IMG/VR virus record: IMGVR_UViG_3300037316_000027
Location: 1-64,000 of that record
DNA from: a virus
Length of the DNA stretch: 64,000 nucleotides
Direction: 5' to 3' (one strand)
Below, piece after piece: positions 1,112 to 52,099 of this stretch. A model generated the notes under the pieces. That model was not told the DNA's origin. It was given only the letters and a program-made list of their open reading frames with translations, and made no database searches. How positions within the stretch are numbered: position 1 is the first letter of the stretch; each line of letters begins with the position of its first letter. The position numbers were made by a program, and so were the translations under genes.

Positions 1112-2479
1112 ATGGCACAACGGACCGACCCGCACCAAGCCCGCGCTCGTGAACTTTGCATCGCTGCCGGGATCGAGCCCGACAGCCGACGCGGAGAAGG
1201 TCGCGGTCACCCTGCATGGACCGAGTACCGCGACGCCGCGCGCAAGGAGATGATCGCAGCCGAACAGGCGGAACTCGCCGCCGATCTAGCCGCCATGTCC
1301 GTGCCGGCGCAAACGGCCGACTACGCTAGCGCGCCGCTGACGATCTTCGGCGAGCACGATGCGCAGACGATCGACCAGATGAAAAACTGCATGAAGGTCG
1401 GCAATGTCGTCGCGGGCGTGATCTGCGCTGACGGGCATCTCGGCTATGCGCAGCCGGTCGGCGGCGTGATCGCCTACGACAAAGGCCACGTCTCGATCTC
1501 GGGGGTCGGGTACGATATCGGTTGCGGCAACAAGGCCGTGCGGCTTGACACGAAGTTCGCTGACATCGCCGAGCACATTCCGACGATCATCCGCGACGTG
1601 CAGAAGACGATCTCGTTCGGCGTCGGTCGCTCGAATGACGACGAACGCGTCGAACATCCGCTGTTCGACAATGCCGAGGCTTGGGCCGACGCGGACATGG
1701 AGGCGTATCGCCCGAAGGCGCAGGCGCAGCTCGGCACGGTCGGATCAGGCAACCACTATGTGGACGTGCTCCGCGACGAGGATGGCTATGTCTGGATCGG
1801 CGTTCACTTCGGCTCGCGCGGTCTGGGCCACACGTCGGCTAGCAAATATATCAAGGCGGTCGGTGGCAGGGACGGCATCAACGTCGCGCCCGCCGTCGTC
1901 GATCTTCACACGGAAGTCGGCGCTCGCTACTACGAGGCGATGAAGCTCGCCGGTAGCTACGCGTCCGCCGGTCGCGACTGGGTGACCGAGCGCGTGCGCC
2001 AGATCATCGGCGGCAACGTCACGATGGAAGTGCACAACCATCACAATTACGCGTGGGAGGAAACGCACGTCATCAACGGTGTCTCCCGCGATCTGCTCGT
2101 GGTCCGCAAGGGCGCGACGCCAGCGTTCCCGGGCCAGCTCGGTTTCGTCGGCGGCTCCATGGGTGACGACGCCGTGATCCTCGAAGGCGTCGATAGCCCG
2201 CAGGCCAAGGCAGCGCTCTATTCCACGGTGCACGGGGCCGGGCGCGTCATGGGCCGCAAGCAGGCCAAGCGCACGTTCACGAAGGCGCAGATGGATCAGT
2301 GGCTACAGGCCCGTGGTGTGACGCTGGTGGGCGCTGATCTCGATGAAAGTCCGATGGCATATCGGAGGCTCCCGGAAGTTCTGGCGCATCACGAGGCGTC
2401 TGTGCGCGTCCTGCACACGCTCCGGCCGTTCGCAGTGGCGATGGCCGGCGAAGGCGAGTTCGATCCATGGAAAGATTGA
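1112..2479 (+). CDS. rtcB: RtcB-family RNA 2',3'-cyclic phosphate/5'-OH ligase
   Basis: RtcB motifs DGHLGYAQPVGG, GVGYDIGCG, LGTVGSGNHY, HFGSRGLG, HNHHNYAW, RKGATPA, GGSMG, STVHGAGR, DESPMAYR. Confidence 0.95.
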   Translation: MAQRTDPHQARARELCIAAGIEPDSRRGEGRGHPAWTEYRDAARKEMIAAEQAELAADLAAMSVPAQTADYASAPLTIFGEHDAQTIDQMKNCMKVGNVVAGVICADGHLGYAQPVGGVIAYDKGHVSISGVGYDIGCGNKAVRLDTKFADIAEHIPTIIRDVQKTISFGVGRSNDDERVEHPLFDNAEAWADADMEAYRPKAQAQLGTVGSGNHYVDVLRDEDGYVWIGVHFGSRGLGHTSASKYIKAVGGRDGINVAPAVVDLHTEVGARYYEAMKLAGSYASAGRDWVTERVRQIIGGNVTMEVHNHHNYAWEETHVINGVSRDLLVVRKGATPAFPGQLGFVGGSMGDDAVILEGVDSPQAKAALYSTVHGAGRVMGRKQAKRTFTKAQMDQWLQARGVTLVGADLDESPMAYRRLPEVLAHHEASVRVLHTLRPFAVAMAGEGEFDPWKD

Positions 2480-2578
2480 TTGACTTCGTTTGGCGCTATA
2501 CGCCTGCGATCTTGATCGTAGGTGCTATCCTCAGCATATCCCTGACAATTTGGGGAGCTTACTGCCGATGCTGAGGAC

Positions 2579-2607
2579 TTGACAAGTCATCCGGCTTCGT
2601 CTATAAG
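2579..2607 (+). promoter_or_regulatory. sigma70-type promoter of the ncRNA/tRNA operon
   Basis: TTGACA (2579-2584) - 17 nt - TATAAG (2602-2607). Confidence 0.8.
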
Positions 2608-2614
2608 CCGCAAC

Positions 2615-2756
2615 TCAATCGCGACGAGAGCCCAGTGGCCCGTCCATACCGCCCCGTAGGCGCACCGCTTCGGCGGTCCCCGAGTTCGCTCGGGTAGCGT
2701 CACGGGGATGCACTGGGAAACGAACGAGGCGTCATCTGCACGCCTACAACGTCGAA
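2615..2756 (+). ncRNA. structured leader RNA / ncRNA, family unassigned
   Basis: Nested stems CGACG/CGTCG, CCCAGTG/CACTGGG, CCCCGT/ACGGGG; two hairpins with TTCG loops (ACCGC-TTCG-GCGGT, CCCGAG-TTCG-CTCGGG); AGGCGT/ACGCCT hairpin. Confidence 0.65.
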
Positions 2757-2769
2757 ACGAAAGAAGACG

Positions 2770-2799
2770 ATGAAGCTCGAAGGCCACACAAGCTATTGA
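2770..2799 (+). CDS. putative leader peptide MKLEGHTSY
   Basis: Purine-rich AAAGAAG upstream; last sense codon is Tyr; TGATG-coupled to a second micro-ORF (2799-2837) that enters tRNA-Tyr. Confidence 0.4.
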   Translation: MKLEGHTSY

Positions 2800-2816
2800 T
2801 GCTCGCTCCACGTTTT

Positions 2817-2900
2817 GGGCGGGCTGGGCATGAGTGAGCCTACCGATCTGTAAAATCGTTCCTTAAGGTGTGAAGGTGCAAATTCCTTCTCCGCCCACCA
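2817..2900 (+). tRNA. tRNA-Tyr(GTA), atypical D and T loops
   Basis: Acceptor GGGCGGG/TCCGCCC-ACCA; anticodon loop CT-GTA-AA; long variable region. Confidence 0.85.
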
Positions 2901-2920
2901 TTGCTGAAAGAACTGATCCG

Positions 2921-3100
2921 ATGATGCGACGCGCGAATAGCAACAGTCCGATGAACCCTGCCCCATTTCTGGGCGTGGGGGAGTTTGGCCGTCCCCGCTA
3001 CTCTCGGACAGTAGAGATCGAAGGTTCAAATCCTTCCGCCCCGACCATTCTCACAACATCGACTATTAGCGCCGCCGCGCAATCGCAAAGCTGGTCCTGA
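2921..3100 (+). CDS. putative sensor peptide reading through tRNA-Pro
   Basis: MMRRANSNSPMNPAPF-[tRNA-Pro]-ILTTSTISAAAQSQSWS*; stops 5 nt before tRNA-Trp; spacer codons almost all specify amino acids of the array's tRNAs. Confidence 0.5.
   Translation: MMRRANSNSPMNPAPFLGVGEFGRPRYSRTVEIEGSNPSAPTILTTSTISAAAQSQSWS
2969..3047 (+). tRNA. tRNA-Pro(CGG)
   Basis: CTACT-CTCGGAC-AGTAG anticodon arm, GGTTCAAATCC T arm, ACCA end. Confidence 0.9.
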
Positions 3101-3105
3101 TCTAT

Positions 3106-3179
3106 ACAGGATTGGTGTAGCGGTAGCACGGCGGTCTCCAAAACCGCTGGCCATGGTTCGAACCCATGATCCTGTGCCA
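3106..3179 (+). tRNA. tRNA-Trp(CCA)
   Basis: ACAGGAT/ATCCTGT-GCCA acceptor; GCGGT-CTCCAAA-ACCGC. Confidence 0.93.
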
Positions 3180-3180
3180 T

Positions 3181-3255
3181 GCGGGTTTGGTGTAACGGTA
3201 GCACAACGGGCTCTGAACCCGTTAGGTCAAGGTTCGAAACCTTGAGCCCGTGCCA
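3181..3255 (+). tRNA. tRNA-Gln(CTG)
   Basis: ACGGG-CTCTGAA-CCCGT; CAAGG-TTCGAAA-CCTTG; GCCA end. Confidence 0.92.
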
Positions 3256-3257
3256 AC

Positions 3258-3333
3258 GTCGATGTAGCTCAGCGGTAGAGCAATCCTTTCGTAAGGGGTA
3301 GGTCGCAGGTTCGATCCCATGCCATCGGCACCA
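3258..3333 (+). tRNA. tRNA-Thr(CGT)
   Basis: GTCGATG/CATCGGC-ACCA; ATCCT-TTCGTAA-GGGGT. Confidence 0.9.
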
Positions 3334-3337
3334 ATTC

Positions 3338-3414
3338 GCCAGTCTAGCTCAGTCAGGTAGAGCGCCGGGCTCATAATCCGGATGTCGTCGGTTCAAATCC
3401 CTCGGCTGGCACCA
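3338..3414 (+). tRNA. tRNA with CAT anticodon (elongator Met or Ile2)
   Basis: CCGGG-CTCATAA-TCCGG; G1-C72 is paired, so not an initiator. Confidence 0.88.
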
Positions 3415-3457
3415 ATCATCGGCAACTCGTGAGAGCTGCCGACATCTGATAACACAA

Positions 3458-3533
3458 GGGGCGATAGCTCAGATGGGAGAGCACCTGTTCTGCAAGCAGG
3501 GGGTCGCCGGTTCGAGGCCGGCTCGCTCCACCA
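3458..3533 (+). tRNA. tRNA-Ala(TGC)
   Basis: GGGGCGA/TCGCTCC with G3:U70; loop TC-TGC-AA. Confidence 0.92.
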
Positions 3534-3539
3534 AAGAAT

Positions 3540-3615
3540 GCCCCGTGTAGCTCAGCGGTAGAGCAAGCGGTCGATAACCGCTAGGTCGCTGGTTCAAATC
3601 CAGTCACGGGCACCA
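3540..3615 (+). tRNA. tRNA-Ile(GAT)
   Basis: AGCGG-TCGATAA-CCGCT; GGTTCAAATCC; ACCA end. Confidence 0.9.
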
Positions 3616-3632
3616 ACAAGGAGACGCGCGTC

Positions 3633-3707
3633 ATGTCATCAAGTAGTAGTCGATCGTTACGGAAGGGTGGCAGAGAGGCAATGCAGCGGCTTGCTAAGCC
3701 GTACTAG
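3633..3707 (+). CDS. Ser-rich leader peptide overlapping tRNA-Ser(GCT)
   Basis: AAGGAG SD (3618-3623), then ATG TCA TCA AGT AGT AGT CGA TCG TTA, continuing into the tRNA to TAG at 3705-3707. Confidence 0.6.
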   Translation: MSSSSSRSLRKGGREAMQRLAKPY

Positions 3708-3748
3708 GTTTGCGCCTAGCGTGTGTTCGATCCACACCCCTTCCGCCA
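3661..3748 (+). tRNA. tRNA-Ser(GCT)
   Basis: GGAAGGG/CCCTTCC-GCCA; GCGGC-TTGCTAA-GCCGT; long variable arm CTAGG/CCTAG. Confidence 0.93.
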
Positions 3749-3752
3749 GACT

Positions 3753-3839
3753 GGAGGGTGGCGTGTACGGTCGCACGAACGGTCCCGAAAACCGCGCCCG
3801 GCGCAAGCCGTGATGGTTCAATTCCTTCACCCTCCGCCA
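3753..3839 (+). tRNA. tRNA-Ser(CGA)
   Basis: GGAGGGT/ACCCTCC-GCCA; loop CC-CGA-AA; variable arm CGGC-GCAA-GCCG. Confidence 0.88.
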
Positions 3840-3843
3840 ATCC

Positions 3844-3918
3844 GCAGAGATAGCTCAGAGGTAGAGCGGCACGTTGAAGGCGTGCGCGTCAGTGGTTCGA
3901 TCCCATTTCTCTGCACCA
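3844..3918 (+). tRNA. tRNA-Phe(GAA)
   Basis: GCAGAGA/TCTCTGC-ACCA; GCACG-TTGAAGG-CGTGC. Confidence 0.9.
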
Positions 3919-3925
3919 CTGTTGT

Positions 3926-4001
3926 TTGGGGATAGCTCAGCCGGTAGAGCGACGCGCTGTTAACGCGTAGGTCGCAGGTTCGAACCCTGCTCCCCGAGCC
4001 A
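3926..4001 (+). tRNA. tRNA-Asn(GTT)
   Basis: TTGGGGA/TCCCCGA-GCCA; ACGCG-CTGTTAA-CGCGT. Confidence 0.93.
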
Positions 4002-4051
4002 TCGGCAACCATTTGCCTCTTCATGCGTTGTCGGTGAAGGAGGATACTCTC

Positions 4052-4207
4052 ATGGTAGTTATTCTATTGCTCGTCGCCCTGATCTGCGAAGTTCTGGCAG
4101 CCCTTGGCGTCCCACTCGGCAATCGTGTTCACCTAGGCTGGCTTGGCCTCGCCTTCATGATCGCCGCGATGCTGGTCGGTCCGATGTCCTTGCTCGTTAG
4201 GGGTTGA
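4052..4207 (+). CDS. small two-TM membrane protein (51 aa)
   Basis: AAGGAGG SD then ATG at 4052; two hydrophobic stretches. Confidence 0.7.
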   Translation: MVVILLLVALICEVLAALGVPLGNRVHLGWLGLAFMIAAMLVGPMSLLVRG

Positions 4208-4310
4208 CAGCCGCCACGAAATATGCGATGTACTCGCGAATGAGTTCCACCCCGCCGGGCGCTGGCAAGCAGTAAGCTCGGATTTGCGCGACGGAAAGAA
4301 ACATGAACGG

Positions 4311-7763: not shown

Positions 7764-8174
7764 ATGGCAGCCGATACCTACGATCTTCTTGCGTCCATCG
7801 TTGCAGAGACCAAGTGCAAGCCGGGCTGGAAGTTCCTGCTGATCGACGAAGATGGCGCGAAGCGCCTCCGCATCACACTCACCACCACCGACAATTACGA
7901 TCCCGAGGACGGCGCGTATCGTCTCAATCATTTTCATCCTGTGCCGGCTGGCGTGACCTACAACGCGGCCACGTGGCGGCGTTGGATTTACGATCAGTGC
8001 ATCCGCACGATGCAGCATGAACTCGGTGAAGCCCTGCGCTTCGGCGCTGAAGAACTTCGCCCATTCGCCCCCATGCACGGCCCCGGGGAAGACCCTTACA
8101 CAGTGCATGAGTGGCGTCCTGAGAAGGATGCACTGACGACGCAAGACGGCTCGCTACGCGAAGGGCCGGTCTAA
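7764..8174 (+). CDS. hypothetical protein
   Basis: GGAG SD before ATG at 7764; globular composition. Confidence 0.7.
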   Translation: MAADTYDLLASIVAETKCKPGWKFLLIDEDGAKRLRITLTTTDNYDPEDGAYRLNHFHPVPAGVTYNAATWRRWIYDQCIRTMQHELGEALRFGAEELRPFAPMHGPGEDPYTVHEWRPEKDALTTQDGSLREGPV

Positions 8175-8348: not shown

Positions 8349-8557
8349 TGTTGCTGACCGCTCTTTGAAGGGATGTAAAATGCTGGATTGTTTTCGAGAC
8401 TTCGATCTGTCGCGCCCCGTGTGTCATCGGTGCGTCTACTTTGCCGTGCTTATGTCCATCCTCACCGCTGGCGTGGCGCTGGGGCTCGGTAGATAGCACC
8501 CGGGCTTGACTTGAAAAGAGATCGTTCAAATGTATCGGTTCTATGTGGGAGGCTAAT

Positions 8558-9136
8558 TTGCGCATATATATGGCTGGGCCGCTGTTCTCAACGGCCGAAT
8601 GCGACTTCAATACCTTGCTTGCTGAGCAGCTCCGTTTGCGCGGGCACGAAATCTTTCTGCCGCAAGAGCACGAACAGCGCTCCGATCGGCCGGACCTGAT
8701 CTTCAAGAGCGATGTCGCTGGGATCGATTGGTCCGACTGCGTGCTCGCCAATCTCGACGGACCGGACCCGGACAGCGGCACGTGCTGGGAGCTGGGTTAC
8801 GGCTTCAAGAATAAGCTGATCGTCGTCTACCGCACGGACTTCCGCCTGTTCGAAGGTTCTGACAAGGTCAATCTCATGATGACCGAGAGCGCTGACCACG
8901 TCATCTACGCGCCGAAGGCATCCGTGCAAGAGCTTGCCGAGCGCATCGATCGCGCCCTTCGCTCTCTGCGAGATCACACCGTAGCCGATCAGTTCGGCGG
9001 GTTCGACCGCGTCGTAAAGTCCGATCGCGGCAACGATGCCGGGATCACGCGCGAGAGCGCCTATGCGCGCCATGTAGCGGGCGGACGATCCGGCGAAGTC
9101 AGACTGACGCCGGTCTATCAGCACGCGGACAAGTAG
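8558..9136 (+). CDS. nucleoside 2-deoxyribosyltransferase / nucleotide N-glycosidase family
   Basis: IYMAGPLFS..E, D..GID.SD, DSGTCWELGYG, NLMM motifs; GGAGG SD before TTG at 8558. Confidence 0.85.
   Translation: MRIYMAGPLFSTAECDFNTLLAEQLRLRGHEIFLPQEHEQRSDRPDLIFKSDVAGIDWSDCVLANLDGPDPDSGTCWELGYGFKNKLIVVYRTDFRLFEGSDKVNLMMTESADHVIYAPKASVQELAERIDRALRSLRDHTVADQFGGFDRVVKSDRGNDAGITRESAYARHVAGGRSGEVRLTPVYQHADK

Positions 9137-50131: not shown

Positions 50132-50135
<4 letters not shown>
48606..50135 (-). CDS. collagen-like (G-X-T) fibre protein
   Basis: Three GAT/GVT tracts separated by globular domains. Confidence 0.88.

Positions 50136-52095
<1,960 letters not shown>

Positions 52096-52099
<4 letters not shown>

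Follow-up and report, generated by a model that had tools for sequence, protein, structure and literature searches.

The first 64,000 nucleotides of the 126,820-bp IMG/VR virus record IMGVR_UViG_3300037316_000027 (this whole stretch is called the window below; its GC content is about 0.59) contain an array of tRNA genes in which a short open reading frame (ORF) rich in serine codons, preceded by a sequence resembling a Shine-Dalgarno (SD) site, runs straight into a tRNA-Ser(GCT) gene. The mini-ORF belongs to a conserved module and may serve as a sensor of serine decoding that sets the maturation of the tRNAs behind it. The array occupies positions 2969-4001 and reads, in order, Pro, Trp, Gln, Thr, Met, Ala, Ile, Ser(GCT), an uncalled tRNA-like element, Phe and Asn (ARAGORN, Rfam). 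Seven of its ten junctions measure 1-7 nt and the three long ones 58, 43 and 45 nt; the features in and around the 45-nt spacer are the following.

3541-3615, plus strand: tRNA-Ile(GAT), the upstream neighbour, whose CCA end lies 2 nt 5' of the SD-like sequence (ARAGORN, Rfam)
3616-3660, plus strand: the 45-nt spacer, with the SD-like sequence, start codon and serine-codon tract; no stable structure on its own
3618-3623, plus strand: SD-like AAGGAG, separated from the ATG by a 9-nt gap (3624-3632)
3633-3707, plus strand: leader mini-ORF of 24 codons plus TAG, encoding MSSSSSRSLRKGGREAMQRLAKPY (ORF list and translation)
3636-3656, plus strand: putative sensor tract TCA TCA AGT AGT AGT CGA TCG (codon usage, family counts)
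3661-3748, plus strand: tRNA-Ser(GCT) with a long variable arm, anticodon at 3693-3695 (ARAGORN, RF00005)
3753-3839, plus strand: second type-II tRNA, Ser(CGA)-like, anticodon at 3786-3788 (covariation, homologues)

The leader and the two serine tRNAs

The AAGGAG would pair with the anti-SD sequence at -8.5 kcal/mol, which places it in the top 1% of random 16-mers from the window, and the codons that follow are ATG TCA TCA AGT AGT AGT CGA TCG TTA, six of the eight after the ATG being serine codons. The codons of the five-serine run begin 25 to 13 nt from the 5' end of tRNA-Ser(GCT), only 4 nt separate the last upstream serine codon from the tRNA, and the frame then continues through the acceptor 5' strand, the D arm and the anticodon arm into the start of the variable arm, where its TAG (3705-3707) falls within the 5' strand of the stem (CTAGG, 3704-3708; predicted fold). 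An earlier note on this DNA had described just this succession, from the AAGGAG over the 9-nt gap, the ATG and the serine-rich codons to the tRNA start at 3661 and the stop in the variable arm, and its description proved exact to the base. The geometry behind its suggestion that a ribosome paused on the serine run would reach roughly to the tRNA 5' end is likewise right, as judged from the 25 to 13 nt just given, and its assignment of AGT to the GCT anticodon and of TCG to the CGA anticodon holds under the standard wobble rules. Read-through from tRNA-Ile into the leader is ruled out, since the frame opens only at 3585. An AAGGAG followed at 5-10 nt by an ATG occurs four times in the window, as compared to an expectation of 2.05, and at least four occurrences are seen in 16 of 100 shuffles; because this count is not significant, the case for the leader rests on comparisons.

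The tRNA-Ser(GCT) itself scores 54.9 bits against Rfam RF00005 (gathering score 29), and its minimum free energy (MFE) structure contains the variable-arm hairpin at 3704-3719. The element at 3753-3839 received no ARAGORN call and no RF00005 match at the gathering score, its best Rfam match being tRNA-Sec at 42.5 bits, under the 47 of that model. Together with six homologues, however, it folds as a tRNA (7 sequences) in which 8 of the 20 base pairs are backed by compensatory changes, and its homologues at other loci are called by ARAGORN as Ser(cga) or Ser(tga). The claim of the earlier note that the next gene is a CGA-anticodon tRNA thus gains support from covariation and homology, though from no tRNA finder or above-threshold match. 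The anticodon loop of this element is CCCGAAA, with C rather than U in position 33 (C in five of the seven sequences, U in two); the D arm is unusual and the acceptor stem has 8 bp in the consensus fold. Possibly it represents one of the anticodon-loop variants that have been proposed to escape anticodon nucleases. AGC (0.303) and TCG (0.280), the commonest serine codons of the phage, match its two serine tRNAs by Watson-Crick pairing.

Conservation and serine specificity of the leader

Homologues were retrieved from three collections by patterns in the body of tRNA-Ser(GCT) only, that is, blindly with respect to the leader, and the counts given here and below are samples among the matches listed. 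After duplicates had been collapsed, 178 unique regions upstream of tRNA-Ser(GCT) were available, of which 177 extend over 60 nt or more. A leader was scored where an ATG-initiated ORF started no more than 60 nt from the tRNA, did not end more than 15 nt short of it and had at least four serine codons ahead of it. Such ORFs precede 24 of the 62 tRNA-Ser(GCT) genes that combine a GGAAGG acceptor with a GC content of at least 0.5, and none of the remaining 115; dinucleotide-preserving shuffles of the same 62 regions yield 2.1 on average and 6 at most in 200 trials, and the same count made for codons of Leu, Arg, Ala, Gly, Pro, Thr or Val gives 0-1 of 62. When all ARAGORN tRNAs in the fetched loci are considered (GC at least 0.5, spacer at least 20 nt), a leader ORF precedes 22 of 76 serine tRNAs versus 8 of 274 others.

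The 37 leader-bearing units fall into 22 clusters at 80% leader identity, and their tRNAs are 0.70-0.92 identical to that of the window, with the exception of L210, a truncated contig, at 0.52 (numbers of this form denote the loci compared). The leader accompanies two type-II serine tRNAs, GCU and then CGA or UGA, and the window has the entire module: an ATG-initiated ORF with at least four serine codons that ends inside the first serine tRNA or shortly ahead of it, this tRNA itself and a second, type-II one. Where the pair stands in the reverse order, a serine-rich ORF again precedes its first member, as in L034 (MRLSSSSSLSSR, then a stop), L202 (...TSSRSTIAR and a stop, then a hairpin) and L118. 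Of the unit sketched in the earlier note, the start codon, serine run, tRNA-Ser(GCT) and second tRNA-Ser recur in the tRNA arrays of many diverged mobile elements, but whether the ORF reaches into the tRNA varies: some ORFs end 5-20 nt short of it, and only the part of the mini-ORF before position 3661 is conserved. Taken together, these sequence comparisons make it very probable that the serine-codon ORF is a conserved and serine-specific feature, maintained at the level of codons beyond what chance would produce.

Codon-level signature of the leaders

Nineteen unique leaders resemble that of the window in that the ATG adjoins the serine run and the ORF enters the tRNA (type 1). Examples are MSSSSSRSSKSA (L150), MSSSSRSTNSA (L244), MQSSSSRSSSSN (L249), MSSSSSSSSSP (L252), MSSSSRSSIS (L331), MSSSSRSSVS (L011), MSSRSSK (L170), MPDDSSSSSEK (L018) and MPSLSDSSSSRL (L313). 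Serine accounts for 108 of 179 codons in the ATG frame of these leaders as compared to 4 of 169 and 12 of 165 in the other two, and for 75 of 95 codons in positions 2-6. Pairwise mismatches (86 of 171 pairs used) fall on the first, second and third codon positions in the ratio 79/72/142, so that the third position is about twice as variable as either of the others. Multi-base exchanges preserve serine, as at one codon of the equal-length leaders L194 (AGT), L011 (TCT) and L331 (TCC), and runs of serine are built from differing nucleotides, such as TCA AGT TCG TCC AGC in L018 or the nine consecutive serine codons of L252. The mean ungapped identity of the serine run is 0.53, versus 0.315 over the 18 nt that lead up to the ATG and 0.316 over the final 9 nt ahead of the tRNA; L150 opens its ORF with the same 23 nt as the window, although its tRNA is only 0.73 identical.

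The choice of codons is no less peculiar. TCA (40) and AGT (35) lead among the codons of type-1 leaders and make up five of the six serine codons in the window leader, and they are the two rarest serine codons of the phage (0.081 and 0.083 of all serine codons, respectively). Similarly, 14 of the 15 arginine codons in type-1 leaders are CGA, a minor codon with a share of 0.115 in the phage ORFs. This dominance of rare TCA, AGT and CGA is, at the level of codon usage, a hungry-codon signature.

Downstream of the serine tract the constraint is lost. Type-1 ORFs run into the tRNA in any of the three frames and stop at +18, +34 or +41/+44, which argues that only the N-terminal serine tract is under selection; and since the C-terminal part differs by frame even in the nearest relatives (+18 in L331, L011 and L194 versus +44 in the window), a functional peptide is unlikely. 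The gap lengths in pairwise alignments of leaders (67/93/110 for the three residues modulo 3) are uninformative, because the tail between serine run and tRNA varies in all three frames.

Leaders predicted to pair with the tRNA

Two further kinds of relative are found. The 9 units of type 2 have an ORF with 8-15 codons behind its start codon and a stop 5-13 nt ahead of the tRNA, as in L006-L008, where MT.ALRYRQQSSRSSF and a stop precede tRNAs for Ser, Ser and Gln; the 9 units of type 3 have the tract TCATCAAGTCGATCTTCC downstream of another tRNA. In both, the serine-codon tract, GUCGAUCUUCC or UCAUCCUUCU, can pair over 10-11 bp with nucleotides 1-11 of the tRNA, forming an anti-acceptor hairpin. 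The mean z-score of this leader-tRNA duplex is -1.47 in type 2 and -1.51 in type 3 versus +0.37 in type 1, and in the full-length MFE structures of the units listed here the acceptor 5' strand is paired with the leader in preference to the acceptor stem.

Predicted anti-acceptor hairpin, type 2 (7 of 9 units): L007, L008, L240, L138, L173, L196, L105
Predicted anti-acceptor hairpin, type 3 (7 of 9 units): L133, L140, L172, L197, L201, L238, L290

By eye, tRNA position 7 in this duplex shows a two-sided change, from G.U to U-A.

These hairpins invite the view that the tract acts as nucleotides, in an untranslated RNA element, either as an anti-acceptor 5' leader or as a processing signal, and that its serine codons are a by-product of a TC- and AGU-rich sequence. 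Besides the pairing itself, this explanation can draw on type 3, where the spacer has no start codon and a core of 17-19 nt is nearly invariant, third codon positions included. It does not extend to the window, where the leader-tRNA duplex (z-score +0.48) is no better than shuffles and the MFE structure retains the cloverleaf, nor to type 1 as a whole with its positive mean. Pairing with GGAAGGG cannot account for runs of AGT, all 19 type-1 leaders have their ATG in the serine frame, including those that differ in the bases next to it, exchanges between TCN and AGY keep serine while the third position drifts, and L018, L252, L034 and L313 all encode their serine runs by different nucleotides. 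We therefore regard an untranslated element as unlikely, though it is the strongest of the alternatives.

Type-3 loci have another peculiarity. Six of them (L172, L201, L238, L290, L133 and L140) carry threonine-rich mini-ORFs 5' of tRNA-Thr, such as MATRTRTTH, MKRTRTRTTH, MEPTTTRTQI and MRTRTST, with all arginine codons being CGA; in L238 and L290 the ORF starts 7-10 nt after a TATAAT box and may be leaderless. In nine of nine type-3 loci, the threonine-rich frame continues without a stop across the tRNA(s) as far as SSSRSS and a stop ahead of tRNA-Ser. Given that the chance of a particular frame being open across a GC-rich tRNA is 24-55% and that the type-3 loci are related, such read-through of whole tRNAs is suggestive only.

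In the window itself, a 16-codon ORF with an ATGATG start (2921-2968) abuts tRNA-Pro(CGG) and has three proline codons among its last seven; it is conserved, as MMRRANSNSPMNPAPF in the window and MMSRSANSPTNPSPK in the related locus L002 (about 7785-7829). The notion of an array-wide system, of which the earlier note had taken the serine leader to be the cleanest unit, receives partial support only from relatives and from this proline ORF.

Spread and carriers of the module

The module is carried by viral contigs, by metagenome contigs and by contigs of metagenome-assembled genomes (MAGs) of Planctomycetes, Devosia and Binatia; the tRNA nearest to that of the window belongs to L331, an Alphaproteobacteria MAG. 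As the module of L244, a Planctomycete MAG, adjoins a TrwC relaxase gene, its setting is a mobile element and not evidently that of a housekeeping tRNA gene. A blastn search of 3616-3840 against phages and plasmids returned no record with the leader module, and Brevundimonas jumbo phages have a serine tRNA cluster without it. In L142, the second serine tRNA ends in the T arm, with unrelated AT-rich sequence beyond; the break may be an integration or recombination junction.

With respect to the phage itself, the RtcB RNA ligase gene next to the array led to only two related loci, L002 and L003, and the array of L003 is different. L002 is the closest relative by RtcB (86% identity) and has the same array without the serine module: its region 8520-8680, when compared with 3541-4001 of the window, shows tRNA-Ile and then, after 6 nt, tRNA-Asn, with no serine tRNAs and with tRNA-Phe relocated between Thr and Met. 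The block of leader and two serine tRNAs hence behaves as a gain/loss cassette.

A candidate sensor of serine decoding

From the observed anatomy, conservation and specificity for serine tRNAs we infer that the leader is translated, that its response has a particular sign and that a particular step of processing is affected. In this model, to which we would give about even chances on the sequence evidence, the leader would be a translated sensor of serine decoding whose ribosome sets the maturation of the two downstream tRNA-Ser, through either access to their 5' side or their folding. Ribosomes have been described to pause, with the codon in the A site, at serine codons once charging of tRNA-Ser falls (PMC6377232), and serine codons are reported to serve as a sensor in sinR (PMC3862929); the two observations make a serine sensor plausible.

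The sequence of events can be envisaged as follows. A ribosome would load at the AAGGAG/ATG of the nascent array transcript. When seryl-tRNA is scarce, it would pause on the rare TCA and AGT codons (and on CGA) within 3636-3653, with its leading edge at or just before the 5' end of the tRNA; being paused, it would bar further initiation, so that tRNA-Ser(GCT) could fold and be cut by RNase P between 3660 and 3661. When serine is decoded fast, ribosomes would enter the acceptor 5' strand and proceed through the D and anticodon arms up to the TAG at 3705-3707, keeping the precursor unfolded or unprocessed for longer. The net result would be negative feedback on the supply of tRNA-Ser. In types 2 and 3, a ribosome paused on the serine codons would release the acceptor 5' strand from the leader, whereas in the window the ribosome reading into the tRNA would itself occlude it; both designs would have the same sign, slow serine decoding giving more foldable tRNA-Ser.

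Several considerations weigh against this model. The whole module is missing from L002, the closest relative by RtcB, and is therefore dispensable. The leader-bearing units are all members of a single homologous tRNA family, and hence the counts given above are not counts of independent events. TCA, two of the six serine codons in the leader, is read by neither serine tRNA of the phage, and the record has no tRNA-Ser(UGA); indeed, the rest of the record yielded only one further, weak tRNA match. The nine type-3 relatives carry the serine tract without a start codon of its own in the spacer, and the serine signal of types 2 and 3 could in part be a by-product of RNA pairing, with TC-rich codons complementing the tRNA. 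SD-like pairing is modest across the 19 type-1 leaders (median percentile 0.17, five of 19 at or below 0.10), and the geometry is loose, with 22-38 nt between the ATG and the tRNA. How large the effect would be is uncertain as well, since the tRNA can refold after termination of translation, and RNase P may outpace the loading of ribosomes.

It could also be that the leader is translated without any sensing of serine, with ribosomes shielding a long spacer from Rho or RNases or delaying processing, or with a small peptide being made. A good SD-like sequence with an ATG would suit such a role, as would the location of the mini-ORF, given that long spacers number only three in the array. Against it stand the restriction of the enrichment to serine codons and serine tRNAs (22 of 76 versus 8 of 274, with 0-1 of 62 for the other amino acids), the preference for rare serine and arginine codons and the frame differences in the C-terminal part noted above. 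This explanation appears quite improbable to us.

Should the sensor model apply more widely, tRNA arrays of mobile elements would double as mRNAs, with mini-ORFs of cognate codons that abut the tRNAs, overlap them or even extend through them, and with the position of the ribosome gating the folding or release of precursors tRNA by tRNA, the tRNA or an anti-acceptor hairpin replacing the terminator. We put this forward tentatively, as a possibility less likely than the model for the single leader. If it is true, the mini-ORFs together with the threonine read-through would constitute an array-wide, demand-driven system of tRNA release, which could answer the depletion of host tRNAs by defence nucleases.

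Tests for attenuation

With regard to a classical leader-peptide transcription attenuator, built of terminator and antiterminator, the window shows some of the expected features, namely a short ORF with a ribosome-binding site and start codon directly upstream of the genes in question and tandem cognate codons. Others are absent: there is no intrinsic terminator, and mutually exclusive hairpins are present in types 2 and 3 only. No terminator-like site was found in or after the spacer (3616-3760) and no promoter within it, and a stretch of 141 nt, when searched for an alternative fold, has the cloverleaf as its MFE structure (z-score -0.04), with the leader of the window unstructured. Nor was there a T-box match at E<=10, or any other relevant Rfam family, in 2400-4300. 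With neither a terminator nor an alternative hairpin, the window leader is not a classical attenuator.

A different arrangement is seen in a cultured phage, Erythrobacter phage XM05 (L335, PV416404.1), where positions 117-356 hold a TTGACA-17-TATACT promoter, a 26-codon ORF encoding MFTQTALHLLTQTPLYCQWQYSCSSL and two hairpins (by eye), directly preceding an unannotated Ser(CGA)-like tRNA homologous to 3753-3839 of the window. XM05 is a possible laboratory model for multivalent leaders of tRNA arrays.

The cognate-codon ORF directly before the genes it might regulate, and the elements of XM05, are what classical attenuation has in its favour; the missing terminator, the cloverleaf fold and the mere 4 nt between the last upstream serine codon and the tRNA leave it very unlikely for the window. 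Least credible of all is that the leader is an accident or neutral relic, a trinucleotide-repeat spacer behind an SD-like hexamer, as could be read from the unenriched SD-ATG pairs of the window, the copy number of (AGT)n, which varies like that of a slippage-prone repeat, and the absence of the module from L002: the tract has been kept while the tRNAs diverged to 0.70 identity and the flanking spacer was randomised, and the comparative counts disfavour it.

Other features of the window

The RtcB gene (1112-2479), which encodes a ligase of tRNA splicing and repair, lies directly 5' of the tRNA array, an arrangement shared with L002, and together with the adjoining array it fits a tRNA repair-and-replacement locus. 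The Met-Ala spacer forms a hairpin in both phages (about 3419-3442 in the window, about 8370-8403 in L002; by eye), with differing sequences; the structure may have been conserved as a processing or pause site. Far from the array, on the minus strand (50132-52099), a 655-amino-acid ORF with collagen triple-helix repeats (Pfam PF01391, E 1.3e-51) probably encodes a fibre protein.

Significance and comparison with known systems

Full-text literature searches yielded no account of leader ORFs controlling tRNA genes or of a terminator-less version of such control. If the model is true, phages and other mobile elements would monitor how a codon family is decoded and provide the matching tRNA as needed, and co-transcriptional tRNA folding, or access of RNase P, would be a new output of ribosome-mediated control. 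The unit comprises only about 130 nt and is readily testable. The model would also bear on what phage tRNAs are for, be it codon compensation or escape from tRNA-targeting defences. A MenT-type toxin reportedly prefers tRNA-Ser. Phage tRNAs have been discussed as counters to tRNA-targeting defences (PMC10264068, PMC13056530).

Sensing by leader peptides is textbook knowledge for amino-acid operons, the attenuators trpL, hisL, pheL, thrL, leuL and ilvL, as well as pheM of pheST, being examples. With attenuators of the trpL/hisL type, the window leader shares a short ORF with a ribosome-binding site just upstream, a run of cognate codons, the use of rare, hungry codons and conservation in relatives. 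Unlike them, it would control tRNAs and not enzymes, it has no terminator/antiterminator, and its ORF overlaps the RNA that is regulated; its likely output, as modelled here, would be tRNA folding or processing rather than transcription termination.

In the translational attenuation of ermC and ermB, an antibiotic and the nascent peptide act jointly as the trigger, and a ribosome-binding site is exposed as the output. Common to both is a stalled leader ribosome that changes the structure downstream, for which the anti-acceptor hairpin of type-2 and type-3 relatives may be compared; unlike in ermC/ermB, serine decoding would be the trigger here and tRNA the output, and the window has no hairpin. 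The bar minigenes of phage lambda are very short translated ORFs which act via a specific tRNA, in trans, by sequestration of peptidyl-tRNA; they differ from the window leader in that they are not linked to tRNA genes and have no run of cognate codons.

T-box riboswitches resemble the proposed system in sensing the supply of a specific aminoacyl-tRNA to control translation-related genes, but, unlike the window leader, a T-box consists of RNA only, spans about 200 nt and binds uncharged tRNA. The sinR gene of Bacillus subtilis is similar in that its serine codons provide a built-in read-out of serine supply; unlike in the window, however, these codons lie inside a protein gene, whose protein level they lower, and no tRNA gene is involved (PMC3862929). 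Leader-peptide attenuation has also been modelled (PMC1183508). Under the sensor model, with its roughly even chances, the leader of the window would correspond to a leader-peptide attenuator that has the tRNA in the terminator's role.

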